Assembly (NCBI GenBank): GCA_048939765.1
Contig: JBHLPF010000006.1
Location: 1-64,000 of the forward strand
Reading direction: 5' to 3'
From: Promethearchaeota archaeon
GTDB taxonomy: Archaea > Asgardarchaeota > Thorarchaeia > Thorarchaeales > Thorarchaeaceae
DNA: 64,000 bases
Translations under genes and position numbers: made by a program
The notes under the pieces: generated by a model
The model's input: the letters and a program-made list of their open reading frames with translations, nothing else
Told to the model about the DNA's origin: nothing
Databases searched by the model: none
Shown: piece by piece, positions 28,999 to 57,966 of the stretch
Layout: the number at the start of each line of letters is the position of its first letter
How positions within the stretch are numbered: the stretch's first letter is position 1

Positions 28999-29111
28999 GT
29001 CATGAAACGGTCTGCTACTACTGTTTATACTTGTTGTTCATATTAATCTCTAAATTCGGCATATTGCGACAGATTGAACTGTCTTATTGACAGAGATGAA
29101 ATGAAGACACC

Positions 29112-29927
29112 ATGAGGGTCAGGACAGTCCAAGCCAAGAGCATCATCACAAAGAGCAATATTCCTGGAATAGACTATGTGATCAATCCGTACATTGGCTG
29201 CCAGCATGCATGCATCTACTGTTATGCGGAGTTCATGAAGCGTTTCACGGGTCATGGCGGAGAAACATGGGGAGATTTCTTGGACGTCAAGCGGTTTGGC
29301 CTTGACAAGATCAAACCGGAAAAGTATGATGGCAAAACAATTCTTCTTAGCTCCGTGACCGATCCATACACACCTTTAGAGGCGAAGTATGAGAACACAA
29401 GAAGAATCCTTGAAAGACTCGTCAGTACCAAGGCGAATGTTCAGATTTTGACCAAGTCACGCCTTGTGGAACGTGACATCGACCTATTTCAGCAGTTCGA
29501 GAACATCGAGGTCGGCGTTTCCATGAATACACTGGATGATGAGTTTGCAAGGTCTATTGAACCGCGTGCATCAAAACCCAAAGACCGACTGAAGGCGCTT
29601 CAGCTAATTGCAGAAATGGGGATTTCCACATACGTGTTCTTGTCACCAATTTTCCCCAAGATCACGGACTGGATGGCAATAATCGATGCTGCACGCAATT
29701 TCACAAATGAGTTTCATTTCGAGAACCTCAATTTCAGAAGCCATAATGTTCCACGCATATTGAGATTAATCTCGAAGGACCACCCTGACTTGTTGAGTCA
29801 CTTCGATCGGATAAGAAAGGACCCAACAATGTGGGATGAAATGGAGGAAGAGATCGAAGAACACTGCAGAGCGATGAATCTGACCTGCAGAATAGAGTTC
29901 CATCATGGGGGATTTACCAAGAGTTAA
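29112..29927 (+). CDS. Radical SAM protein (spore photoproduct lyase-like family)
   Basis: INPYIGCQHACIYCYA, SSVTDPY, ILTKS. Confidence 0.92.
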   Translation: MRVRTVQAKSIITKSNIPGIDYVINPYIGCQHACIYCYAEFMKRFTGHGGETWGDFLDVKRFGLDKIKPEKYDGKTILLSSVTDPYTPLEAKYENTRRILERLVSTKANVQILTKSRLVERDIDLFQQFENIEVGVSMNTLDDEFARSIEPRASKPKDRLKALQLIAEMGISTYVFLSPIFPKITDWMAIIDAARNFTNEFHFENLNFRSHNVPRILRLISKDHPDLLSHFDRIRKDPTMWDEMEEEIEEHCRAMNLTCRIEFHHGGFTKS

Positions 29928-29985
29928 TGCTCAATCTTTATGAGGGACTATATCTGCAAATGCAAGAGAATTAGGTGAAATCAGG

Positions 29986-30324
29986 GTGTCAAAGTGGTAT
30001 TCATCAAGCTCACCGTTGGGTGTAAGAGTCCTTGCAGACTTTGAGATTCTCGTGGGTATTGCCTATATTCTATTGGGCACATTCCTGTTATACTTCTTAG
30101 CAATCTCAGGTGTCGGTGTTATTGCCATTGGCTTCACTATGATATACATGGGATGGGCATTAGACAAACTGGAGATTTGGGCATGGTGGGGGAGCCTATT
30201 GATGAATGGAGCGATTTGTGTGAGTCATTTCATATTTGGCGGCGACTATCTTTCCTTTATCATGTCCTTGGCGATCATCATCTATCTATTGACTCCTGGA
30301 GTTCGAAGCCGGTTCTTTCAATGA
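29986..30324 (+). CDS. Small multi-TM membrane protein
   Basis: Hydrophobic helices; SPLGV...WAWW...YLLTPGVR pattern resembles 27122..27496. Confidence 0.7.
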   Translation: MSKWYSSSSPLGVRVLADFEILVGIAYILLGTFLLYFLAISGVGVIAIGFTMIYMGWALDKLEIWAWWGSLLMNGAICVSHFIFGGDYLSFIMSLAIIIYLLTPGVRSRFFQ

Positions 30325-43533: not shown

Positions 43534-44877
43534 ATGACTGATTATGCATTTGTCCTTGGGAAGAATTGGCTGCTTAGCCTTGCCGAGCTAGTCGTCTATA
43601 TTCGAGATAGAGGCCTTGCTGATGGTGTGAAGGACTACTCGAGGACAGCAGCTATTGTGGAGATAGAGGAAAATCTGGATGACGAGCAGTTGGTCGAGAT
43701 CCAGAGTGCACTCGGCGGTTGTTTCAAGGTTGGCCGAGTTGCATCCGCATATGACCGGTCACTTGTCGAGGGTGCCTTTCCAGCAAGAGGGAAAATAGAC
43801 AAAGAGGCACGAAGAACGTTTCAAGAAGCTCCGTGGACTGACCGCGTCTGGAGCAACCTGAAAGGTGGCAAGGTCAAATTTGGTGTCAGTACATATCCAA
43901 TGCTGGGGAAACAGACCACCATTGACCTTAGGAAATTCACTCTTGGACTTGATGAATGGACCAAGAAACGCATTCTGGAACTTGGTGCGAATAAAGCAGT
44001 TTACTACGTCTATGATGGGCCCGACAAGAGAGATGCGCGTCGACCAAATGTAGCGCTTTGGCCTCAGAGTATCGGTCGACATGGTCTTTTGAGTCCGCCA
44101 AACGCCGAGTTGCTCGCTCTTCTAATGGAGGACACATTGTATATTGCTAAGACGGTGGCAGTCTATGACTCAACGCTTCAGAAATACAGAGACGAAACTA
44201 GACCCTTCATGTCAGCAGAGATTAGCACTAGTCCCAAGATCTGCAGAACTCTCCTCACGTTATCCGGTGCGAGACCCGGAGATACTGTGCTTGATCCATT
44301 CTGCGGAACTGGAACGCTGCTCATGGAAGCTGCAATGCTTGGCATGAAATGCGTGGGTATTGATATCGAGCAGTCAATGGTGCAGGGAGCTAGCCAGAAT
44401 CTGAAGTGGTTGGGGGCGGGTCTCGGAGAATGGTTAGACTTCAAGCTCATCAAGGGCGATGCACGTAATGTTTCGAAGCTTGTTGAAGGACAAGTTGATG
44501 CAGTGGCATTTGAACCACACCTTGGGCCGACATACTCCGAACCTCCTAGATATGAAGAGGCGGCTAGCAACATGGAGGACCTCTCGGTGCTGTACCGTGA
44601 TGTTCTGCAGAGTCTTGAGTCATGCATAAGACCAGGAGGAAGAATTGCAATGACTTTGCCTGTTGTAAACACAACTGAGAAGCAGGTTTCAATAGATCTT
44701 GAGTCTATGTTGGAGGATACAGGATTTGTGGTCTTCAAGCTCCTTCCTGAAGATGCCTTCACAGAAGCAAGACTAAAACACAAACAGCTACAGGTAATCC
44801 CTGAACGCAGTACTCTCCCTGAGAGAAAGAGAGGGCAGATTGTAGAACGAAATGTTGTGATGCTGGGTAAGGCTTAG
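43534..44877 (+). CDS. Trm11/TrmG10-like tRNA methyltransferase
   Basis: LSLAEL N-terminus, SPKICR, VLDPFCGTGT, FEPHLG; ATG at 43534 follows the nfo stop. Confidence 0.8.
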   Translation: MTDYAFVLGKNWLLSLAELVVYIRDRGLADGVKDYSRTAAIVEIEENLDDEQLVEIQSALGGCFKVGRVASAYDRSLVEGAFPARGKIDKEARRTFQEAPWTDRVWSNLKGGKVKFGVSTYPMLGKQTTIDLRKFTLGLDEWTKKRILELGANKAVYYVYDGPDKRDARRPNVALWPQSIGRHGLLSPPNAELLALLMEDTLYIAKTVAVYDSTLQKYRDETRPFMSAEISTSPKICRTLLTLSGARPGDTVLDPFCGTGTLLMEAAMLGMKCVGIDIEQSMVQGASQNLKWLGAGLGEWLDFKLIKGDARNVSKLVEGQVDAVAFEPHLGPTYSEPPRYEEAASNMEDLSVLYRDVLQSLESCIRPGGRIAMTLPVVNTTEKQVSIDLESMLEDTGFVVFKLLPEDAFTEARLKHKQLQVIPERSTLPERKRGQIVERNVVMLGKA

Positions 44878-45707
44878 AACAGATGCCGAATCACGTCATC
44901 CAAAATGGCATATGTCTGAAGACGCTCGACATCTGACTTAACGTACGGCATTGCATGTTTGAATAGCATTGTCTGGTAGGCTTTCTTTGAAACGGTCTCC
45001 TTAACCACTTGACTCAATATCTTCAATATCTCTTCCAGGGCGACTCTTAGCTCCTTGTAGGGTGCAGTATTGACATCAATGTTGAGGACCTCAATGCCCG
45101 CTGAGTCGACGGTCACTACATCCAAGAAATCATAGAATGCTTTGATAGGCTTGAACGACTTCTTGATGCGCTTAACAAGCTCCCGCCGTGTTTCCTTATC
45201 TGTCCTGACTCTCATAATCGCTCTGAATAGGTGACTGTAGACAGCCAGGCAGTCCATCGATTTTCCAGCAACGAGGCTCTCGTCAGTGACCTCATATTGG
45301 CTCACTAGCTCATCAATAAAGCTCCCAAACTTCCTGAATTGACTAGGTCTTCCATGCCACTGTTTCAGCATTGTTTCAATGGTGTTTCCATCGGGAATCT
45401 GATTCTTCATGAACTCGTTCAATGCATATTCAAGAATGAAGCGCATATGACTGACCCGGGCGCTCTTGGATACGACCATGACGAAGAGAAGATAGTCATT
45501 AGCCTCCCAGATGTAACGATTTGTATCTGTATCGATCGTCTTGAGACTCTCTTGGGATGCCTTGTCTATGAATGTATGAGTCGCTGAAAGAAAAGGTGCA
45601 ATCAGATCCATGTCGATCTCAATATTGGCATACGCTTTACTGACGAGGGGCCTACCGCTACCTCGTTCAATCAACCATATGCCTTGAACAGACCTCTTGT
45701 TCGACAT
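44874..45707 (-). CDS. Longin-like domain protein
   Basis: GIWLIERGSGRPLVSK..DMDLIAPFLSA..LLFVMV; helical C-terminal domain. Confidence 0.65.
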   Translation of the reverse strand: MSNKRSVQGIWLIERGSGRPLVSKAYANIEIDMDLIAPFLSATHTFIDKASQESLKTIDTDTNRYIWEANDYLLFVMVVSKSARVSHMRFILEYALNEFMKNQIPDGNTIETMLKQWHGRPSQFRKFGSFIDELVSQYEVTDESLVAGKSMDCLAVYSHLFRAIMRVRTDKETRRELVKRIKKSFKPIKAFYDFLDVVTVDSAGIEVLNIDVNTAPYKELRVALEEILKILSQVVKETVSKKAYQTMLFKHAMPYVKSDVERLQTYAILDDVIRHLF

Positions 45708-49063: not shown

Positions 49064-50413
49064 TCAGCCAGAGGTCACCTGCGCAGAGCTTATGACGATT
49101 GATGGACTTATAATCGAGAAAGCAACTCGAGTATCTGCAGCTACCATTTCTATACGTTTCAACAGATCGCGCATGTTGATCCCAATGAGCGTATTCTGCA
49201 CAGGATGCTGAATCTCTCCATTCTCGAAATATGATCCTTCCATAATCATTGCACTGAGGTCACCGGTTGTCATGTTTGGCCGGTCTCCTGTGAAGCGGCA
49301 TAGAACTCCCTTGCCAACTTCTTTGATGAGATCATCCAATGTGCCCTTTCCAGGAGTAACTACGAAGTTTGAAGAGGATACCGAGGGCACTCCTGCATAT
49401 CCAGGCCGGCTGGCATTTCCAGTGCTATCGACACCATCCTTGTTGGCGGTGTAAGAGTTGTGCAATAGACTCTTCAGGACCCCACCATCAAGAATCTCGG
49501 TGCGTTGAGATGGATGGCCTTCGGCATCAAAAGACCGAGAAGAAACACCCGATGTCATAAGACCATCATCGATAATCCGAAGCTGCGGAGTCGATACCTC
49601 TTCGCCTAATGCATCTGCGATATAGGAGCGGCCATATTGGACTTCCTCGGCATTCACAGCTCCAGCAAATCCTCCCCCTAGGATGGTCCCAACGGCAAAT
49701 GGAGCAAGAATCACTGGCATCTCACCTCCCTCAACAGCCTTGGCCCCCAGATTGCTCAATGCATTCTCTGCAGATCTCGTTCCTATCCACTCAGGGTCAA
49801 TCTCCTTGAGTCTGCGAGAGAGCTGGACCTCATAGCTGGATGTCTGATCGCCATCTTCTTTGATTGTGGGCTCTGTATACATCCATACAGACGTCGATTC
49901 GCCAAACCCCTTGATTCCGAGCGAATTGACAATGACAGTAGTGCCAGTCGATGAACTCATTTTAGCTGCAACTGCAACATCCATGCCCTCCAGTCTTGAG
50001 CGTGCAGCGTCAACTCCACGAATGATCATTTCAGCGACTTGCTCAGAATCCAGCTCTACAATTTCGGAATCGTAGAGACCTTTAACGTCAGGGTAAATCC
50101 CATCGAACGATGGAAGGCTCACAAAGTCCGGGTCAGGAACAGAGGCCTTGGCGAGTCTAACAGACAGCTCAGCAGCCTCCAGAAGGTCGGCTTCTAGAAC
50201 AGTTGTGGCATATGCGAACCCCACTCTCTTGCCGACAACTGACCGAATTCCGCAGCCTGTATCACGATTCTCTGAGGCACTTTTGACTGAATTGTTCTCT
50301 ACATCGATGGAGAAGGTACGGGATGATGACGTGTAAACCTCCACCTGGCCGGCACCAAAAGACTCAGCCTTCTTAGCTGCTTTTTCCGCGATGTCTAGAA
50401 GATTCTCCATCAC
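49064..50413 (-). CDS. pmbA: PmbA/TldE family protein
   Basis: GCGIR, FDAEG, STGNA, TTGDLS; no HExxxH. Confidence 0.9.
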   Translation of the reverse strand: MMENLLDIAEKAAKKAESFGAGQVEVYTSSSRTFSIDVENNSVKSASENRDTGCGIRSVVGKRVGFAYATTVLEADLLEAAELSVRLAKASVPDPDFVSLPSFDGIYPDVKGLYDSEIVELDSEQVAEMIIRGVDAARSRLEGMDVAVAAKMSSSTGTTVIVNSLGIKGFGESTSVWMYTEPTIKEDGDQTSSYEVQLSRRLKEIDPEWIGTRSAENALSNLGAKAVEGGEMPVILAPFAVGTILGGGFAGAVNAEEVQYGRSYIADALGEEVSTPQLRIIDDGLMTSGVSSRSFDAEGHPSQRTEILDGGVLKSLLHNSYTANKDGVDSTGNASRPGYAGVPSVSSSNFVVTPGKGTLDDLIKEVGKGVLCRFTGDRPNMTTGDLSAMIMEGSYFENGEIQHPVQNTLIGINMRDLLKRIEMVAADTRVAFSIISPSIVISSAQVTSG

Positions 50414-50414
50414 T

Positions 50415-51806
50415 CTACATGCCTCCTACAGGAATATTGCGAATCCTGGCATGTGGGCCTCCACTCATGTCAGGTACCATCTGTCCATTCTTCCCACAAG
50501 TCCCTGCATCCATGAGAAAGTCATTGCCAACAGCATCTATTTGGGCTAGTACGTCAAGAATCTGACCAGCAAGAGAAACGTCGCGGACCATTTGGCCAAG
50601 CTCACCATTCTCAATGAGATAGCCATGACTGGCTTGGAACATGAACTGTCCTTTTGCGGGCTCTGTGTACCCATAGTTGAAGCTGCAGAGCATTACCCCT
50701 TCTTTTGTGTCGGAAATCATCTCGTCGACGTCCCAATCACCTGGTTCCATGATGGTGTTGGACATCCTGGCCAATGGTGCGTGCATGAAGGACTGCGCTC
50801 TGGCAGAGCCATTTGGTTGCATATCCAAACGAACTGCAGTTTCAAGGGTGTGTAGAAGCTCGGTGAGTACACCATCTTTTACAAGAATTCGCTTCTTCGT
50901 CTTTGTTCCCTCCCAGTCATATTCAAATGAGCCCCGCTCTCCGGGCATAGTAGGGTCGTCGCTTAGATTAAGGTGATCAGGGCCAACACACTCTCCAACC
51001 TTGTCCTCGAGAACTGTCGTATGAGCTGGCCAGTTATCTGCTTCGCAGGCATGACCAAATGCCTCATGAACCATTACGCCATTTAGGACTGGGTCCATGA
51101 TAACATCGTAGGTTCCTCCCTTTGCAGCTACAGATGATAGCAAATCAATTGCCATCTTTGCAGATTCCTCACCGATGGTCTGGGGCCGCTCTAACTCCAT
51201 CATCTCAAAACCACCCCTGACACCGTAGGACTTGAACGCCCTTTGCCTGTTAGCACCATCTTTAGCGGTTGAAACAGAAATGACTCTAGGAAGAGCATTT
51301 TGCATACTCACACTTGTTCCAAAGGAATTGGTGACATAGAGATCAGTCCAGAGATCACCGTATATAGAGCGGGTATTGACAATCCTCTTGTCATAAGCAC
51401 GAGACTGCTCATCGATTCTCTTGATATACTCAATCTTGTCCTCAACCGAAATATCCCTGAAGGGCTTTTTCAGCTTGACTTCAACCTTGTCATTGAAGGT
51501 AGGCCCATCCATCTCAAACTTCTCATTGACCTTTGTCTTGGTGGCCATGGCTAGCCTAGCAACTGATTCACCAGTTTCACGCATGCCCTTAGCAGTAAGG
51601 TCAGTTGTCTGAGCAAAGGCCCAAGCGCCATCAATGAAAGCTCGAATTCCAGCCCCCTTCAGTCGTGAGGCAACAGACCTCTTTGTCACACCATCCGTCA
51701 TCTCAATGATGGTGGTGACAGTGTTTTCTATTCGCACATCAGCGAATTTTGCTCTAGCATTGATAGCCGCCTCAATTGCAGCCCGAGCTATGTCTTCCAT
51801 AAGCAT
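50415..51806 (-). CDS. tldD: TldD family metalloprotease
   Basis: HEAFGHACEAD, YDWEG, RMSNT, CGKNGQ. Confidence 0.93.
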   Translation of the reverse strand: MLMEDIARAAIEAAINARAKFADVRIENTVTTIIEMTDGVTKRSVASRLKGAGIRAFIDGAWAFAQTTDLTAKGMRETGESVARLAMATKTKVNEKFEMDGPTFNDKVEVKLKKPFRDISVEDKIEYIKRIDEQSRAYDKRIVNTRSIYGDLWTDLYVTNSFGTSVSMQNALPRVISVSTAKDGANRQRAFKSYGVRGGFEMMELERPQTIGEESAKMAIDLLSSVAAKGGTYDVIMDPVLNGVMVHEAFGHACEADNWPAHTTVLEDKVGECVGPDHLNLSDDPTMPGERGSFEYDWEGTKTKKRILVKDGVLTELLHTLETAVRLDMQPNGSARAQSFMHAPLARMSNTIMEPGDWDVDEMISDTKEGVMLCSFNYGYTEPAKGQFMFQASHGYLIENGELGQMVRDVSLAGQILDVLAQIDAVGNDFLMDAGTCGKNGQMVPDMSGGPHARIRNIPVGGM

Positions 51807-51959: not shown

Positions 51960-53528
51960 TTGACTCTAGACTCCCTATCTCATCGCTGTCCTGTATGTCA
52001 AAGAAACAGAGCCAGTCACTTGTGTGAAGATTGCGGTACAGTGTTATGCTCAGAGTGCCTTGACTCAAGGACCAAAGAGTATCATATGTGTCGCGATTGT
52101 CACGCGACATTGACCACGTTACAAGGTGAAAAGATAGACAGCTGTCCTGAGTGCGAGTCTGAGAACATTGATACAGGTAGGCGTACAGCTGACATATGTC
52201 CTAGATGCCACTCAAGTCGTATTATCCTACTGGAAGAGCGGAGAAGAACTCTTGCTCAAGAACTTAGACAGGCCATCATGAGCATTCAGTATGGCCACAC
52301 CAAATTGCGAGAGTTCATGACTAAGCTTGACAATGCCAAGAGAACGCTTGTTTCTCTCAGGATGGCTAACTTCCTACACTATCATTGGATAGAGGAGAAG
52401 GTCGAGTCAGTGCAGGATGAAATGCCAGCAATCAAGAGTCGAATTGGAAACCAAGCAGAGATAGTCGCAAAGCAAATCGCTGCTGAAACAAAAGGCCTCA
52501 TTGATTATAGCAAGTGGACTCCTGCTCAGTTCCCGTTCATTGAGGGTGTCAGAAATAGAGTATCAGAGCTTGGCACGTACTACAGACAACACGTCGACGA
52601 TAGTCTTGATGAGGTCAGACCAAGACTGGAGGAAGTAATGGCCCAGCTTGATGGTCTGAGCTATCACAGGAGAGAATTCACAGAGTTCTATGAACATGGT
52701 GAACTCGCTGTTAATGAATTGCCTGTGGCGGCTCTGCCGGACATTAGGGTTGTGGGTAGCAACTTCCTGAAAAACGACAAGGCCTACGGTACGCTCTTCA
52801 TCACTAACAAGAGGCTATTCCTAGTGGCTGAAACGGGAATACTACGCAAGAAGACTGAGATTGTGTTCCAGTTTCCGCTTATGTATTTGAAAGATATCGA
52901 AGAGGATGGCCGCCTTCGCAAGAGAATTGTATTGCGACTTAAACAGGGCGACGTTAAGATCTCCTGCAGCGAGGATACAAAAAAGGTCATGCCAGATTAC
53001 TTCGAGATTGCGAGGAAATTCGAGAAGTATATGCAGAGTGATCTTCAGAGAGTTCGGAAGATTGAGCAGAAGAACCTCAACATTAGCGATGTCAGACTCA
53101 AGATTGAAGGATTGGTATACTCATTGCTCTCCACGACTGGAAATGCCTCAGAAGCACCGCAAGGAAGCCGAATGAGAACCAGATTCTATCAACCACGATC
53201 GATTCCACCGAGATATGGACAAATCGAGAATCCGTATGACCATCCCAGAGTGTTCAAGGAGCATCTTGAGGACACTCTTGGTCGCACAGACTATGGTCGA
53301 ACCTACTATCGAGAGGCCCCCTATGCACCTCCCGAGTCTGATATAGAATATCTCAAGAGGAACGCAATAGAGATTCAGAATGCGATTAACGAGACTCTAC
53401 ATCTAATGAGAAACGGACATTTAGTCCCTGAAGACTTCATCAGAAGGTATCGCGGTCTCATGCGCGACTCATATCAGACCAATCATGAAATCGAGCGTGC
53501 TACCCGGCATTTTCATGGGTACAGATGA
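51960..53528 (+). CDS. Zn-finger + coiled-coil + PH(GRAM/GLUE)-like + steadiness-box-like protein; candidate ESCRT-I subunit or adaptor
   Basis: Six CxxC pairs; GTLFITNKRLFLV; Pro/Tyr-rich linker; C-terminal NAINETLHLMRNGHLVPEDFIRRYRGL; GGAGGT SD before the TTG start. Confidence 0.65.
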   Translation: MTLDSLSHRCPVCQRNRASHLCEDCGTVLCSECLDSRTKEYHMCRDCHATLTTLQGEKIDSCPECESENIDTGRRTADICPRCHSSRIILLEERRRTLAQELRQAIMSIQYGHTKLREFMTKLDNAKRTLVSLRMANFLHYHWIEEKVESVQDEMPAIKSRIGNQAEIVAKQIAAETKGLIDYSKWTPAQFPFIEGVRNRVSELGTYYRQHVDDSLDEVRPRLEEVMAQLDGLSYHRREFTEFYEHGELAVNELPVAALPDIRVVGSNFLKNDKAYGTLFITNKRLFLVAETGILRKKTEIVFQFPLMYLKDIEEDGRLRKRIVLRLKQGDVKISCSEDTKKVMPDYFEIARKFEKYMQSDLQRVRKIEQKNLNISDVRLKIEGLVYSLLSTTGNASEAPQGSRMRTRFYQPRSIPPRYGQIENPYDHPRVFKEHLEDTLGRTDYGRTYYREAPYAPPESDIEYLKRNAIEIQNAINETLHLMRNGHLVPEDFIRRYRGLMRDSYQTNHEIERATRHFHGYR

Positions 53529-53531
53529 TGA

Positions 53532-54155
53532 CTAAATACCCAGTTCACGCTCCAAATCCTTAATGTCTTTCTCAAGGGTTTCTGACTCAGATGCAGGCCT
53601 GGCTGCTACTGATGCTGCATCAGCCAATCCAACTTCCACATCGATTTCTTGCATGGCAGCAGCCACATCATCTGAACTAACTTCCATGCTCGCATCAAGC
53701 GCCTCTGCAGATATTGCACTCTCAATCTCGAACTCATCTAATCGACGAGTGATCTCGTCAATGTTCTCAACAAGCCGGCGGGTATCACTTGTATCGCCAA
53801 GCATTCCAAGGATCTTTGCAACCTGCTCGAGTGCGCGACCTGTCCTTGCTGATGTCTGTGCACGATTGAGGTGAGTAAGGATTTTGAGAATCTGAAGCCT
53901 CGCCTTGTCTGTGGAGAGTGCGTATCGTCTGAAACGTATCATCTCAGTTGCATAGGTCGTGAAGGCATCCATTTGTCCAGCCTGGCGAGCTTTGATAGCT
54001 CGAGCTCTTGTGTCACGCTCTTCTTTCTCCAACTTGCTTCTCTCACGAGCAAGTTGTTTCGTCAGAATTCTGAGCTGACTGGAAACCTCTCCAATGTCTG
54101 GTTTTTTCCGACCCCATCTGAATGCCTTTCTGAGTGAATCCAAAAGTCTCACCAC
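53532..54155 (-). CDS. ESCRT-III Snf7-family protein (Vps2/24/46-like)
   Basis: Basic N-terminal helical hairpin (LARERSKLEKEE..AIKARQAG..YATEMIRFRR), acidic C-half, terminal helix TLEKDIKDLERELGI. Confidence 0.85.
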   Translation of the reverse strand: MVRLLDSLRKAFRWGRKKPDIGEVSSQLRILTKQLARERSKLEKEERDTRARAIKARQAGQMDAFTTYATEMIRFRRYALSTDKARLQILKILTHLNRAQTSARTGRALEQVAKILGMLGDTSDTRRLVENIDEITRRLDEFEIESAISAEALDASMEVSSDDVAAAMQEIDVEVGLADAASVAARPASESETLEKDIKDLERELGI

Positions 54156-54315: not shown

Positions 54316-55539
54316 ATGTCTGATAGATTAGACCAAGGCCTGAAAAATCTACTCGACAGGGCCATAGAACTTGACCAGAGAGGAATGAAGAAGGAAGCTG
54401 CTCAATACTACCTGAAGGCTAGCAAAATCCTGATCAAACTGTCAAATGCAGCATCTTTGCCCTCAGTTCAGAAACACTACCTTGACAGGGCACAAGAGTG
54501 TGTTGACAGAGTCCGCTATATCTCTGGTATAAAGAAGAAGGCGAGAGGACCTCCAGAGGGGTTGACGACTCCACCAGTGTTTTCTTCTGCTGAAACGGAA
54601 CCAACAGCCGAGAAGTCTACGGAAGCGATGGCATCTGAAGCAGAGGTGGATGAGGACACACGAAGACTGCAGGAGATGATAGCTGACACAATCATCACTG
54701 AGAAACCTAATGTCAAAATGAGTGATGTTGCGGGCCTAAAGGATGCCAAGCAGGCAATTAATGATGCAATTATCGCACCGATGAAACATCCAGAGCTCTT
54801 CAAGGGGAAGTCTCGGCAGCCATGGAGGGGAATATTGTTCTATGGTCCCGCAGGATGCGGAAAGACGTTGATAGCAAAAGCGGTGGCATCGGAGGTGAAT
54901 GCCACTTTCTTCAATGTTTCAGCAGGCAACATTGTAAGCAAGTGGCTTGGAGAGTCTGAGAAACTGGTCATGAACCTCTTCACTTTGGCCAGACGAAGTC
55001 AGCCTGCCATAGTCTTCATGGATGAGCTGGATTCCGTCGGGGTCTCTAGGTCTGGTGATGACGTCGGGGGAGAAAGAAGACTAAAGACTCAGCTTCTAAC
55101 AGAACTACAGGGACTAGCCAGCGACCTTGAAGATAGGGTCACAGTGATTGGTGCAACAAACCTGCCATGGGAGTTGGACTTCGCTCTTCGGTCGAGGTTT
55201 GAGAAGAAAATCCATGTGCCGCTGCCAGACAAGCCAGCTAGAAAGAGAATCTTCGAGATTCACATGGAAGAGATAAATGTCGCTCCTGAAGTGGACTTCG
55301 AGGAACTTGCGGATCTCAGTGAGGGATATAGTGGACGGGATATTAGCGTCGTCTGTAGAGAAGCAGCCATGGAACCGATAAGGGACCTTCAGCGCATTGG
55401 AAGAATGGACGAGGAAGAAGAGATTCTTGATATTCGACCAGTATCCAGAGAAGATCTTCTGCAGGCGATCGAGAACATAAAGCCGGCAACTTCTCCTGAG
55501 GATGTAAAGAGGTATATCGATTGGGCGGAGGGTTCCTAG
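54316..55539 (+). CDS. vps4: Vps4 AAA+ ATPase with N-terminal MIT domain
   Basis: RAIELDQRG..AAQYY MIT domain; PWRGILFYGPAGCGKT, SKWLGESEKLV, FMDELD, GATNLPWELD. Confidence 0.95.
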   Translation: MSDRLDQGLKNLLDRAIELDQRGMKKEAAQYYLKASKILIKLSNAASLPSVQKHYLDRAQECVDRVRYISGIKKKARGPPEGLTTPPVFSSAETEPTAEKSTEAMASEAEVDEDTRRLQEMIADTIITEKPNVKMSDVAGLKDAKQAINDAIIAPMKHPELFKGKSRQPWRGILFYGPAGCGKTLIAKAVASEVNATFFNVSAGNIVSKWLGESEKLVMNLFTLARRSQPAIVFMDELDSVGVSRSGDDVGGERRLKTQLLTELQGLASDLEDRVTVIGATNLPWELDFALRSRFEKKIHVPLPDKPARKRIFEIHMEEINVAPEVDFEELADLSEGYSGRDISVVCREAAMEPIRDLQRIGRMDEEEEILDIRPVSREDLLQAIENIKPATSPEDVKRYIDWAEGS

Positions 55540-55542
55540 GGA

Positions 55543-56277
55543 GTGGGTGTCAGAGAGAGACGTAGAGAAAAAGAGAAAGAAAAGACTACGTCAGAAACAG
55601 CAACATCAGAACCCACCGTAGATGAGGCCATTCCAGCAGAAGAGATAGAAGAAGTGAAGGAAACCTACAGACCGGAAGCTGTTATGACGCAAGCGGCAAC
55701 AGAAACTGCTGTCGAAGAGAAGAGGGATTCAGTAGCTCAAGCTGAGGAAGTTCTAGTCAAACCGGATGAAGTCACCATCATGCCTCCATGGGGAGACCTT
55801 GGACAAACAGAGTGGATGTATGGCATACCTCCTCGAGAAGAAGACAGAGAGATGTGGGCTGAAGAGTGGTCTGATTTCGTCCTGAGATGGATGGAAGCAC
55901 ATGATGTCCATGTCCTTTCTGTGACTGCTTTCATCAAGGAACCCCCCTTTAATGAAATCACGAATAAAATCGATTCATTCAAGCTAATTGGCAATGTGCT
56001 CGTAGAGAAGGAAATTGCGGAGTGGCTGGATAGGAACCAAAGACAATTGCGAGTCTATTGGAGATTCCTTGAGGAATGGGCGGACATTATATATGAATGG
56101 GCCTTGAAGTCAGGGAAGGTCAGACTAGATGTGAAATCAATAGTCATTCAGGAAGAGGAATATAGCTTCGCTAGACTGCCAGAGAAGGATCTTCATCAGA
56201 TACTCCTGATAATGGTGGAGAAAGGACTTGCAGAGTGGGTGGACAAGAAAAGAGGGGCAATCAAGATCATCGTTTAA
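55543..56277 (+). CDS. vps25: ESCRT-II Vps25-like protein with acidic N-terminal extension
   Basis: WAEEWSDFVLRW, AEW..VYWR.LEEWADIIYEWA, L..MVEKGLAE; PP motifs at the N-terminus. Confidence 0.88.
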   Translation: MGVRERRREKEKEKTTSETATSEPTVDEAIPAEEIEEVKETYRPEAVMTQAATETAVEEKRDSVAQAEEVLVKPDEVTIMPPWGDLGQTEWMYGIPPREEDREMWAEEWSDFVLRWMEAHDVHVLSVTAFIKEPPFNEITNKIDSFKLIGNVLVEKEIAEWLDRNQRQLRVYWRFLEEWADIIYEWALKSGKVRLDVKSIVIQEEEYSFARLPEKDLHQILLIMVEKGLAEWVDKKRGAIKIIV

Positions 56278-56278
56278 C

Positions 56279-57052
56279 TTAACGTCGTGAAATAGATCCA
56301 CCATCGTCATGTTCCCTGGCACGCAGGCCTGGGAAGTAGTATCTACCCCCAGTTGAGAATCGAATGTCTGCCACTGCCATTCCGGCATCTGCTAGACTGG
56401 AGAGAACTTGCCTTGCATGATCCTCGGACCATTTCATGAGCATCATTACTTCCTCAACAGAAACATAGCCCTTAGATGCAGCGAGGTTTACAACATCCGC
56501 TTGATCCCTTCTGAGCTCAAGTGGGCGAAGCTCAACTACTTTTACACCACCGCGTAGCGTCCGTATGCCTGGTATTAGTCCATGCTCAGCAACCCGATTG
56601 ACAGCCTCGATAACATCACTGTAGCTTATTGCCTTAAGCTCAGGCATACGCTTCACAACTTCAACGATTAGCTCAGCGAGTCCCATGAGTCCCTTGGAGG
56701 CATGTACTGTTGCCACATCAAGAATTGCAAGACCAATGTGGTCGTAATATTCATCCATGGTCATTCCGTCTCCACGGAATCGGTTCTCACGACGGGAGAG
56801 GTCAAGCAGCATAATGGCATCAGGGAATCGTTCTGCAACATGTTCAGTCTGAATGAAGGTGCCAAAATCTAGGCCAATGCGCCTCAGATCTGCAATGTTA
56901 GCCTTAACCTCACTGGCTAGTGCTTCAGACTCCCTCTGATATGACCTGATGTCGACAATTCCCATGTCGAACATCTTCTTCAGCTGGTCAAGGGTGGCAA
57001 TTGAGGCGAAGAGTTCGGATTGGAGACGTTCTTGCATCAAAGAAACCTTCAC
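56279..57052 (-). CDS. Vps28-N-like domain fused to ESCRT-II Vps22/36 tandem winged-helix domain
   Basis: C-terminal DEYYDHIG..GLMGLAEL..ISYSDVIEAV..PLELRRDQ..GYVS..W..ARQVL..G..YYFP; N-terminal ELFASIATLDQLKKMFDMGIVD..Y. Confidence 0.8.
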   Translation of the reverse strand: MKVSLMQERLQSELFASIATLDQLKKMFDMGIVDIRSYQRESEALASEVKANIADLRRIGLDFGTFIQTEHVAERFPDAIMLLDLSRRENRFRGDGMTMDEYYDHIGLAILDVATVHASKGLMGLAELIVEVVKRMPELKAISYSDVIEAVNRVAEHGLIPGIRTLRGGVKVVELRPLELRRDQADVVNLAASKGYVSVEEVMMLMKWSEDHARQVLSSLADAGMAVADIRFSTGGRYYFPGLRAREHDDGGSISRR

Positions 57053-57240: not shown

Positions 57241-57966
57241 TTGCCTGAGGAGCAGATCATCGAATCGGTAATGAAACCGCGAGTATTGAGTTTGAGAATT
57301 ATCGTTGTGATAGTTCTGACGCTGACTATTTGCGTAGGATCTACAGAAGGACTTACCAATCACGGATTCTATTGGGGTATTGAGATTGGTGATAGGTTTG
57401 ACTATCACATGGAGCTTCGGCTCCCAGATTCTAGTAAAAACAAAGCCCTTGATTATTATGTGGTTGTAGATGATTTGCCTTCAATTGATGAGAATATCAC
57501 AGACATACCTCAAATCACTGGTGATGTATATGACTGGAACAATTATCATTCATTCTACTTGATGAACGATACAAGGATTACATCTCAGACGAACATCTCA
57601 GACGATCTCAGACAAACTCTGCATTGGAGAGCTTTTCCAGTTGGTAACTGGAGCCTTGTCAATGATTTATTCCTCATACCGAAAAATAATAGCTTGTTTG
57701 AGGTCCAGACATTTGACACTGCAGCTGATTGGGGGTATAGTATCACTGGTATTGTGTTCGGAATTACAGTAACAGAAACTGGGAGGTATTCTAAAGAAAC
57801 TGGTGCATTGATCTTTTACGAGTTGAACGACCAAAGATTCAATGAATCAATCTACTCAGTTCAGATTACAATTGTTGGTGACGCTGTTCCATTGTTTGTG
57901 TTAATTGGAGGGGCATCAATTGGACTATTGGTTGTTGCATTGGCGGTCCTGAAGAAGAGAGTCTAG
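57241..57966 (+). CDS. Secreted, C-terminally anchored surface protein
   Basis: Signal-like IIVVIVLTLTICV, several N-x-S/T sequons, terminal TM helix plus KKRV; AT-rich. Confidence 0.7.
   Translation: MPEEQIIESVMKPRVLSLRIIVVIVLTLTICVGSTEGLTNHGFYWGIEIGDRFDYHMELRLPDSSKNKALDYYVVVDDLPSIDENITDIPQITGDVYDWNNYHSFYLMNDTRITSQTNISDDLRQTLHWRAFPVGNWSLVNDLFLIPKNNSLFEVQTFDTAADWGYSITGIVFGITVTETGRYSKETGALIFYELNDQRFNESIYSVQITIVGDAVPLFVLIGGASIGLLVVALAVLKKRV

Follow-up and report, generated by a model that had tools for sequence, protein, structure and literature searches.

Asgard ESCRT systems offer the best window on the origin of eukaryotic membrane remodelling. To our knowledge, Asgard archaea have no identified Vps36 GLUE domain, Vps37 or ESCRT-0, and for this reason the way in which archaeal ESCRT proteins find their membrane is an open question. 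An obvious candidate for this role is the Asgard-specific protein Znr_CC_PH_SB, which combines a PH domain with an ESCRT-I assembly hairpin, is present in nearly all sampled Asgard genomes and is encoded within ESCRT clusters. The family was described computationally under the names Znr_CC_PH_SB and Znr_PH_CC_SB (cog.011556 of the asCOG collection), with a probable place in ESCRT-I suggested for it (Makarova et al., 2024, mBio; PMC10936438). Its cog.011556 entries include one from Lokiarchaeum GC14_75 (PMC10936438).

The present analysis concerns a Thorarchaeota copy of this gene in a 64,000-nucleotide stretch of DNA (the window). The encoded protein has 522 amino acids, and its features are as follows:

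51960 to 53528, forward strand: ORF of Znr_CC_PH_SB, Thorarchaeota copy, 522 aa with a TTG start (open frame on translation; homologues)
51981 to 52229, forward strand: zinc module, aa 8-90 (six CxxC pairs, conservation, Pfam, model of the module)
52230 to 52697, forward strand: helical region, aa 91-246 (four long helices; AF2 pLDDT 84-95)
52707 to 53015, forward strand: predicted GRAM/GLUE-type PH domain, aa 250-352 (model, fold matches, Pfam across the family)
53019 to 53129, forward strand: pair of helices following the PH domain, aa 354-390 (AF2 model; conserved among Thorarchaeota homologues)
53139 to 53330, forward strand: disordered Pro/Tyr/Arg-rich linker, aa 394-457 (pLDDT below 50; variable in both alignments)
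53331 to 53516, forward strand: predicted steadiness-box (SB) helical hairpin, aa 458-519, with helices at 459-484 and 490-519 (model and hhalign)

The Gene and Its Family

The ORF at 51960-53528 is confirmed as a real gene, and its start position is shared with homologues, some of which use ATG. A first-pass annotation made from the DNA letters had read it as an adaptor with several domains, and every motif listed there is present in the translation: 12 cysteines arranged as six CxxC pairs (C10/13, C22/25, C30/33, C44/47, C62/65, and C80/83), a stretch of helices spanning about residues 91-246, GTLFITNKRLFLV (residues 277-289) accompanied by the basic stretches ILRKK and RLRKRIVLRLK, a Pro/Tyr-rich stretch at about 394-457, and the C-terminal NAINETLHLMRNGHLVPEDFIRRYRGLMRDSYQ. 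This motif set and its homologue support lie far above chance, because the homologues are numerous and the cysteines are kept across divergent members. A homology search gave 167 homologues at E<=1e-3, of which the best 120 are 50-93% identical to the query, and a profile search gave 114 clusters at 50% identity. Two alignments were used, one of Thorarchaeota homologues only and one of 57 diverse family members that are 17-29% identical to the 522-aa protein. On its own, the 522-aa protein had only sub-threshold matches to Pfam and to PDB sequences (DZR 0.0016, bPH_3 0.02, RING/FYVE 0.2 or weaker).

Judged by architecture, distribution and context, the ORF product is the Thorarchaeota orthologue of Znr_CC_PH_SB (asCOG cog.011556). 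It carries three N-terminal CxxC...CxxC units, four central helices, a PH domain and a C-terminal steadiness box, its family is confined to Asgard archaea, and its gene lies among ESCRT genes. All homologues whose source organism is named come from Asgard archaea, and the family profile, at E<=1e-5, detects a member in 193 of the 201 Asgard genomes sampled; in most Asgard families the match is strong and full-length. The protein kind was therefore already known from the computational description of 2024, and the window adds no new kind; the novelty implied by the first-pass annotation fails on this published architecture (cog.011556; PMC10936438). Of its domain reading, the GRAM/GLUE-type PH domain, the steadiness-box tail and the link to ESCRT hold, while the analogies to FYVE/ESCRT-0 proteins and to the Pro/Tyr region of TSG101 do not.

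ESCRT Neighbourhood

The genes downstream of the ORF encode ESCRT components:

53532 to 54155, reverse strand: ESCRT-III (Snf7 family) gene (Pfam Snf7, E 7e-11)
54316 to 55539, forward strand: Vps4, with MIT, AAA and Vps4_C domains (Pfam)
55543 to 56277, forward strand: Vps25-like ESCRT-II subunit (Pfam ESCRT-II, E 4.5e-16)
56279 to 57052, reverse strand: Vps22-like ESCRT-II subunit (EAP30 at residues 82-229) with a fused N-terminal Vps28-N-like hairpin
56789 to 57034, reverse strand: Vps28-N/SB-type hairpin of the Vps22 fusion, aa 7-88, a candidate partner of the SB (BLASTP, hhalign)

The ESCRT-III gene stands tail to tail with the ORF, and their stop codons are 3 nt apart. In all Thorarchaeota loci that are long enough (71 loci were fetched) the order is ArgRS, two TldD genes, Znr_CC_PH_SB, Snf7, Vps4, Vps25 and Vps22. 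This block also holds housekeeping genes (ArgRS, TldD, AspRS), and Thorarchaeota synteny alone could reflect general collinearity. The convergent Znr_CC_PH_SB-Snf7 pair is found in those Thorarchaeota loci that reach beyond the gene, and also in three unrelated Asgard lineages (L074, L075 and L111), and in other Asgard families the Znr_CC_PH_SB gene sits inside full clusters of UEV-Vps23, Vps28, Vps22, Vps25 and Vps4, joined by Snf7 in L111. The ESCRT linkage first proposed from the window is thus borne out across lineages.

The genome from which the window derives (88.5% complete) appears to have a reduced set of upstream factors. UEV-Vps23 had no match in it with either Pfam Vps23_core or an Asgard UEV-Vps23 query, ubiquitin and canonical Vps28 were not found there, and Vps23_core occurs in one of 43 genomes of the same family. 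Thorarchaeota have also been reported to lack ubiquitin (PMC9192718). The sole Vps28-like match in the genome is the N-terminal hairpin of Vps22 (E 5.9e-9), setting apart a sub-threshold match to a 411-aa protein on contig 21, which, from this match, could supply a Vps28 C-terminal domain. The Vps22 hairpin matches the N-termini of Asgard proteins called as VPS28 by Pfam (BLASTP E 2e-10 to 1e-6) and the SB of the Znr_CC_PH_SB family (hhalign E 1.3e-3), and it is the probable partner of the SB in this genome. Two other candidates were rejected: the ORF at 57241-57966, considered as Vps28, is membrane- or secreted-like with hydrophobic stretches at both ends and has no Pfam match, and a 145-aa ORF on contig 69, considered as a free SB protein, is SHOCT-like.

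The C-terminal Hairpin

The C-terminus is predicted as a helical hairpin at pLDDT about 90 (AF2), in line with the steadiness-box-like tail originally suggested. Comparison of the 57-member alignment with the C-termini of Asgard UEV-Vps23 proteins by hhalign gave a probability of 97% and E 3.3e-11 over residues 458-518, and Pfam Vps23_core is matched at the C-terminus of 14 of the 57 members. The wider alignment is needed for this strong match: the Thorarchaeota-only alignment matched the Asgard Vps23 SB weakly (hhalign E 0.01, probability 4%), its profile found the yeast Vps23 core in register among PDB sequences at E 0.15-0.84, and Vps23_core has no match in the ORF product itself. These profile comparisons support homology of the tail hairpin to the SB of Asgard UEV-Vps23.

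Helical hairpins are a common fold. The SB model also superposes on a chain of the S. islandicus CdvA filament (9s9g_A; Z 9.7, rmsd 1.2 Å over 67 residues), which raises the possibility that the protein works in the manner of CdvA, that is, as a scaffold on the membrane to which ESCRT-III is directly recruited, or on which it is templated, for instance at the division site, with a hairpin that self-assembles into filaments instead of entering an ESCRT-I headpiece and a PH domain that replaces the membrane binding of CdvA. Such a role would fit with the ESCRT-III gene being the most conserved neighbour across lineages, always tail to tail, with Pfam CdvA matches in 3 of the 57 members, and with a reported similarity in sequence between the SB and CdvA (PMC10936438). 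On the other hand, many unrelated chains also align to helical hairpins at middling Z scores, and in sequence the hairpin is much closer to the SB of Asgard Vps23. Convergent genes are not co-transcribed, the model and the Pfam matches contain no PRC barrel, and no ESCRT-III-binding peptide was identified. A CdvA-like scaffold is therefore unlikely, and the hairpin is better taken as a predicted SB of the ESCRT-I kind.

The Zinc Module and Helical Region

The six CxxC pairs would suffice for three predicted zinc sites. The first four pairs have a B-box/cross-brace-like spacing and the last two are zinc-ribbon-like; across the 57 members 10 of the 12 cysteines never vary and the remaining two hardly do. 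Pfam zf-B_box is matched in 21 of the 57 members (best E 1.9e-5) and the ANCHR-like B-box in 11 (best 6.5e-6), in both cases mostly below the curated cut-offs, while DZR and zinc ribbon families match other members. When the module was modelled alone (pLDDT 82), its fold matches reached Z 4.4 at most and Foldseek E values were no lower than 0.03; these weak matches comprise RING, U-box, B-box and ZZ fingers as well as zinc ribbons, with tandem B-boxes and RING fingers at Z 3.4-4.4 only. The module is thus only weakly B-box-like, and of the "FYVE/B-box-like" fingers first proposed the B-box part may hold in this weak form and the FYVE part is not supported.

An upstream, ESCRT-0-like role comparable to that of Vps27/Hrs, in which the zinc module is a FYVE-type finger binding phosphoinositides, is highly improbable. 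The spacing HxCxxCGxxxCxxC resembles the FYVE core, and the Thorarchaeota-only profile finds solved FYVE domains at marginal values (E 0.012-4: ZFYVE19 0.012, RUFY1 0.08, EEA1 0.2). However, that search gives RING and PHD domains similar scores, the Pfam families listed for the 57 members do not include FYVE, and the top 50 fold matches of the module contain no FYVE structure. The R(R/K)HHCR motif for PI3P is missing: the 522-aa translation contains no RRHHCR patch, the site reads RASHLCEDCG without a basic patch, and the family consensus at this point is xxxCEDC.

The zinc module is followed by four long helices, in which R134 is invariant and H140 and E145 (at the first turn between helices) and F240 are nearly so among the 57 members. 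Foldseek and structural alignment gave no specific fold match for this region. The similarity to DH-PH (RhoGEF) proteins at the top of the Foldseek list was rejected (rmsd 14-27 Å, and 14-20 Å in the alignments of the helical region), as it combines a PH match with non-specific helices. A B-box followed by a long helical region and a C-terminal domain is also the arrangement of TRIM proteins, and the weak fold matches of the zinc module are chiefly to RING and U-box E3 domains, so that an E3-ligase-like or oligomerizing factor that modifies ESCRT components could be considered. This is scarcely probable: a RING proper is lacking, every match falls under or close to its threshold, the model folds the helices back into a bundle rather than the long antiparallel coiled coil of TRIM proteins, and ubiquitin was not found in this genome and is reported to be lacking in Thorarchaeota.

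The PH Domain and Linker

The PH domain is modelled as seven strands and a C-terminal helix (AF2). G277 is invariant and T282, F288, G293 and G317 are nearly so among the 57 members; the basic residues R296, K298, R318, R320 and K321 are conserved as well. The closest folds are the GRAM-PH domain of MTMR2 (Z 12.6), Lam6 (Z 12.3) and the GLUE domain of EAP45 (Z 10.5 at 22% identity), with Foldseek E values of 3e-5 to 3e-4. Among the Pfam matches of the 57 members, bPH_3 accounts for 30, GRAM for 11 and the Vps36 GLUE domain (Vps36_ESCRT-II) for 5; the GLUE matches are thus tied with or below the GRAM and generic PH matches. Together these data agree with the GRAM/GLUE-type assignment made at the outset. 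Across the family, the Pfam matches to bPH_3, GRAM, GLUE, B-box and Vps23_core fall where each domain would be expected. A PH fold alone, here a modelled one, is no proof of lipid binding.

The linker ranges from 24 to 459 aa across the 57-member alignment and has no conserved motif. PPxY (IPPRY in the ORF product) occurs in 8 of the 57 members and P[ST]xP in 11, mostly in long linkers, and both were rejected as functional motifs since they are not kept even among close relatives. What had been likened to the Pro/Tyr-rich region of TSG101 is this variable, disordered linker.

A generic zinc-finger/PH protein unrelated to ESCRT, placed beside ESCRT genes by inherited gene order, was already disfavoured and has an almost negligible probability: the housekeeping genes of the Thorarchaeota block and the generic bPH_3 as best Pfam PH match would allow it, but the adjacency recurs in lineages with differing other neighbours and the SB is evidently related to that of Vps23.

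A Possible Ubiquitin-Independent Route to ESCRT-III

The best explanation overall, and one we hold to be fairly probable, is that the Znr_CC_PH_SB orthologue acts as a membrane-directed, ESCRT-I-like adaptor to ESCRT-II/III. In this scheme, the PH domain, perhaps with the flanking basic strands, would anchor the protein at the cytoplasmic face of the membrane, and the zinc module could serve as a protein-binding head. The SB hairpin would assemble with other SB-type hairpins into an ESCRT-I-like headpiece. UEV-Vps23 and Vps28 are its presumed partners in most Asgard lineages, an arrangement that would put Znr_CC_PH_SB in the position of Vps37/Mvb12; in the present genome the SB would pair with the Vps28-N-like hairpin fused to the Vps22 encoded nearby. 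In this way the adaptor would attach directly to ESCRT-II (Vps22/Vps25), leading to ESCRT-III nucleation and Vps4-driven remodelling, and the outcome would be a membrane-directed recruitment route independent of ubiquitin.

A more far-reaching proposal, which is tentative and rather doubtful, is that the ancestral upstream ESCRT factor of Asgard archaea, and the one most widely retained, is Znr_CC_PH_SB and not UEV-Vps23, with the PH domain as membrane anchor and the SB as the seed of the ESCRT-I headpiece, and that in Thorarchaeota it forms with the Vps28N-Vps22 fusion a minimal, ubiquitin-independent ESCRT-I/II bridge. If this is true, membrane targeting would have preceded ubiquitin-directed cargo recognition in the evolution of ESCRT. 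The window provides a clean minimal case, with five genes and no UEV-Vps23, canonical Vps28 or ubiquitin found, and would allow the hairpin-hairpin link to the Vps28N-Vps22 fusion to be tested directly.

Comparison with Known Systems

Several described proteins share parts of this architecture. CdvA of TACK archaea is a membrane-associated recruiter of ESCRT-III with an SB-related helical hairpin, but it possesses a PRC barrel together with a CdvB-binding tail, and neither a zinc module nor a PH domain, so that only the hairpin resembles the ORF product. Vps36/EAP45 has in common with it a PH fold of the GRAM/GLUE type, though the GRAM domains of MTMR2 and Lam6 match at least as well as GLUE. 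Yeast Vps36 also carries zinc fingers in the same chain; these are of the NZF type and inserted in the PH domain, whereas those of the ORF product are N-terminal and not of the NZF type. The winged-helix core of Vps36 (EAP30 family) has no Pfam match in the ORF product and is absent from its model.

Vps23/TSG101 shares the C-terminal SB hairpin preceded by helices. Where Vps23 has a UEV domain, the ORF product has an N-terminal zinc module and an inserted PH domain, and no UEV family is among the Pfam matches of the protein or of its family members. The family coexists with true UEV-Vps23 in other Asgard lineages, which makes it a paralogue that carries an SB rather than an orthologue of Vps23. 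Vps37/Mod(r) and Mvb12 offer a functional analogy, in that the ORF product may join Vps23 and Vps28 as a third subunit that bears an SB and contacts the membrane; their N-terminal domains differ from it, and the Mod_r Pfam match is weak (3 of 30 members, E 0.03). No clear Vps37 homologue was found in Asgard archaea by Hatano et al.

The closest system is Znr_CC_PH_SB itself. It has the same domain content in the same order (three zinc ribbons, a coiled-coil or helical region, PH domain and steadiness box) and, like the ORF product, is Asgard-specific, widespread in the phylum and located beside ESCRT genes, that of ESCRT-III among them. The first two zinc sites may differ in kind, being B-box/cross-brace-like in the ORF product versus separate ribbons in the published description, and the ORF product is 522 aa long, compared with 600-900 aa in Lokiarchaeia-type members. 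There is no substantive difference between the two, and the window holds the Thorarchaeota form of Znr_CC_PH_SB, with a short linker.

Gene and Relatives

The open reading frame at 51960-53528 (+) comprises 522 codons and begins with TTG, at a start position common to its homologues, some of which have ATG there. All motifs listed in the first-pass annotation were present on translation, namely 12 Cys arranged as six CxxC pairs between residues 10 and 83, an extended helical stretch, GTLFITNKRLFLV at residue 277, a Pro/Tyr-rich stretch, and the C-terminal sequence quoted there, and that observation is confirmed. Homologues numbered 167 at E ≤ 1e-3; the best 120 of the 167 are mostly of ~520 aa, 50-93% identical, and labelled Thorarchaeota. 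Searching 1.8 billion representatives with a profile of 30 homologues found 114 clusters at 50% identity, and of 201 Asgard genomes sampled, the family profile matched 193 (E ≤ 1e-5), most families having strong matches over the full length.

Domain Architecture

An AlphaFold2 model of the protein was built on 30 sequences (mean pLDDT 76).

Structural features in the AlphaFold2 model
Residues 1-90: small beta elements around the Cys pairs
Residues 91-246: four long helices (pLDDT 84-95)
Residues 255-352: PH domain, a seven-stranded sandwich plus C-terminal helix
After the PH domain, before the disordered stretch: two further helices
Residues 394-457: disordered stretch (pLDDT <50)
Residues 459-484 and 490-519: helical hairpin, the steadiness box (SB; pLDDT ~90)

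The GRAM/GLUE-like PH domain proposed earlier is upheld by both fold matches and family-wide Pfam assignments. Foldseek matched the domain to the Lam6 PH-like domain (E 3e-5) and EAP45 GLUE (E 3e-4), as well as to MTMR2 GRAM. Exhaustive structural comparison gave Z 12.6 for MTMR2 GRAM-PH (rmsd 2.8 Å over 106 residues), Z 12.3 for Lam6, and Z 10.5 for EAP45 GLUE, whose 22% identity was the highest among the PH-domain matches listed. Among 57 diverse family members, Pfam placed bPH_3 (30/57), GRAM (11/57), and Vps36 GLUE (5/57) at the expected positions.

For the C-terminal tail, the comparison set consisted of C-termini from 14 UEV-Vps23 proteins that Pfam Vps23_core detected in other Asgard genomes; their genes are followed downstream by Vps28 and Vps22 genes, whose identity was confirmed by Pfam or BLAST. 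The family-wide alignment matched this set over residues 458-518 (probability 97%, E 3.3e-11); the Thorarchaeota-only alignment gave an identical register, but E 0.01. Pfam Vps23_core matches the C-termini of 14 of the 57 members, and the yeast Vps23 core was matched in register (E 0.15-0.84). The modelled hairpin and the UEV-Vps23 match bear out the steadiness-box-like tail.

Ten Cys of the zinc module are invariant across the family and two nearly so. Taken with sub-threshold Pfam matches to B-box (21/57) and ANCHR-like B-box (11/57), the spacing within the first four pairs suggests a cross-braced finger and then a ribbon. When the module was folded alone (pLDDT 82), no fold match exceeded Z 4.4, in a list mixing RING, U-box, B-box, and ZZ fingers with ribbons. 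Of the proposed FYVE/B-box-like identity, the B-box part retains these sub-threshold and weak, mixed matches; the FYVE part is not supported, as the PI3P motif is absent, FYVE is not among the Pfam families listed for family members, and FYVE sequence matches were on par with RING or PHD ones, no better. The linker, rich in N, S, P, Q, and Y, ranges from 24 to 459 aa, and PPxY and P[ST]xP occur in it only sporadically, which makes the supposed analogy to the Pro/Tyr region of TSG101 weak. The idea of one chain uniting ESCRT-0, Vps36, and Vps23/37 modules is partly supported: it holds for the PH domain and SB, and not for FYVE or the TSG101-like region.

Genomic Neighborhood

The surroundings are those of an ESCRT locus of Asgard archaea. 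The gene converges on an ESCRT-III (Snf7) gene, with 3 nt between the stop codons, and beyond that gene follow Vps4, Vps25-like, and Vps22-like genes; upstream are two TldD/PmbA genes, ArgRS, and TFIIB. Across 71 Thorarchaeota species-level loci, the order ArgRS, TldD, TldD, this gene, Snf7, Vps4, Vps25, Vps22, AspRS is kept in every sufficiently long locus. Since this block holds housekeeping genes, the contexts of more distant homologues were examined: these are likewise convergent with Snf7 in otherwise different surroundings. Clusters that join the gene to UEV-Vps23, Vps28, Vps22, Vps25, and Vps4 occur in two further Asgard families, and one of them (locus L111) includes Snf7 too. The suggested ESCRT linkage is upheld.

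Other genes of the window were also noted. The tandem TldD/PmbA metallopeptidase pair (49064-51806 (-)), directly upstream of and divergent from the gene, recurs in every related Thorarchaeota locus that reaches that far. Between Vps22 and AspRS, 57241-57966 (+) encodes a predicted membrane or secreted protein of 241 aa, which is hydrophobic near each terminus and matches nothing in Pfam. Since tblastn found a counterpart in none of the 71 related Thorarchaeota loci, the gene may have been inserted locally. The 277-aa product of 44874-45707 (-) weakly matches a longin domain (Fuz_longin_1, E 0.0015).

ESCRT-I Parts and a Candidate Partner

Residues 7-88 of the Vps22-like protein (56279-57052 (-)) match the N-terminal hairpin of Pfam-called VPS28 proteins (BLASTP E 2e-10 to 1e-6) and align to the SB of the present family (E 1.3e-3). 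No other stretch of the genome gave a clear Vps28-like match (E 5.9e-9 here, E 0.45 for the one other hit). This Vps28-N/SB-type hairpin makes the protein an ESCRT-I/II fusion; in other Asgard families, a stand-alone Vps28 gene precedes Vps22. A caveat on the fusion as sole Vps28-like match is a 411-aa helical protein on contig 21 of the same genome (G000; 29061-30296 (-), L001:838-2073), with sub-threshold Pfam matches to VPS28 (E 6.7e-4, aa 49-191) and BAR (E 5e-5, aa 230-377); it may belong to the multidomain proteins with a Vps28-C part that Makarova et al. list (PMC10936438).

An Asgard UEV-Vps23 query and Pfam Vps23_core and ubiquitin found none of these in the window's genome (88.5% complete). 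Among 43 genomes from its family, just 1 gave a Vps23_core match, and Thorarchaeota are described as being without ubiquitin (Hatano et al., PMC9192718). Some 8.4 kb beyond the window end, a 390-aa protein (contig 60, 72367-73539 (+); L110:1368-2540) has C-terminal helices with a weak hhalign match to the stalk and SB of Asgard Vps23 (E 4.5e-4, probability 33%). A 145-aa protein on contig 69 (11482-11919 (+); L109:1297-1734) weakly matches the Vps23 C-terminal profile (E 0.12), and the VPS28 model matches weakly at the same place across stop codons; it is SHOCT/GvpG-like by Pfam and so probably not an SB. One 484-aa protein from another Asgard family (L106; G145 contig 21, 31704-33155) joins a UEV-like N-terminus, Vps23-type SB, and full Vps28, a UEV-Vps23-Vps28 fusion resembling that reported for Heimdallarchaeota.

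Proposed Role and Comparison with the Published Family

The protein is best read as an ESCRT-I-like membrane adaptor, whose PH domain would sit on the membrane and whose SB hairpin would be part of the headpiece. In Thorarchaeota, its headpiece partner would be the Vps28N-Vps22 fusion, through which the adaptor would connect directly to ESCRT-II, ESCRT-III, and Vps4 with no need for ubiquitin. The leading alternative is a scaffold acting directly on ESCRT-III, like CdvA, the ESCRT-III recruiter of TACK archaea; it draws on the conserved ESCRT-III gene adjacency and on the similarity between the protein's hairpin and that of CdvA (Z 9.7, rmsd 1.2 Å).

A protein of this kind is already known. 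Makarova et al. (2024; PMC10936438) described the Asgard-specific family Znr_CC_PH_SB or Znr_PH_CC_SB (cog.011556), comprising three zinc ribbons, a coiled coil, a PH domain, and an SB. It was called "likely to be ancestral in Asgardarchaeota" and "a likely ESCRT-I component," with membrane association expected for the PH domain; in their table, the Lokiarchaeum GC14_75 member lies two genes from Vps20 (PMC10936438). Our literature search found no further description of, and no experimental work on, a protein of this type. The present protein shows every architectural feature of Znr_CC_PH_SB, a match made by architecture rather than by accession-level listing.
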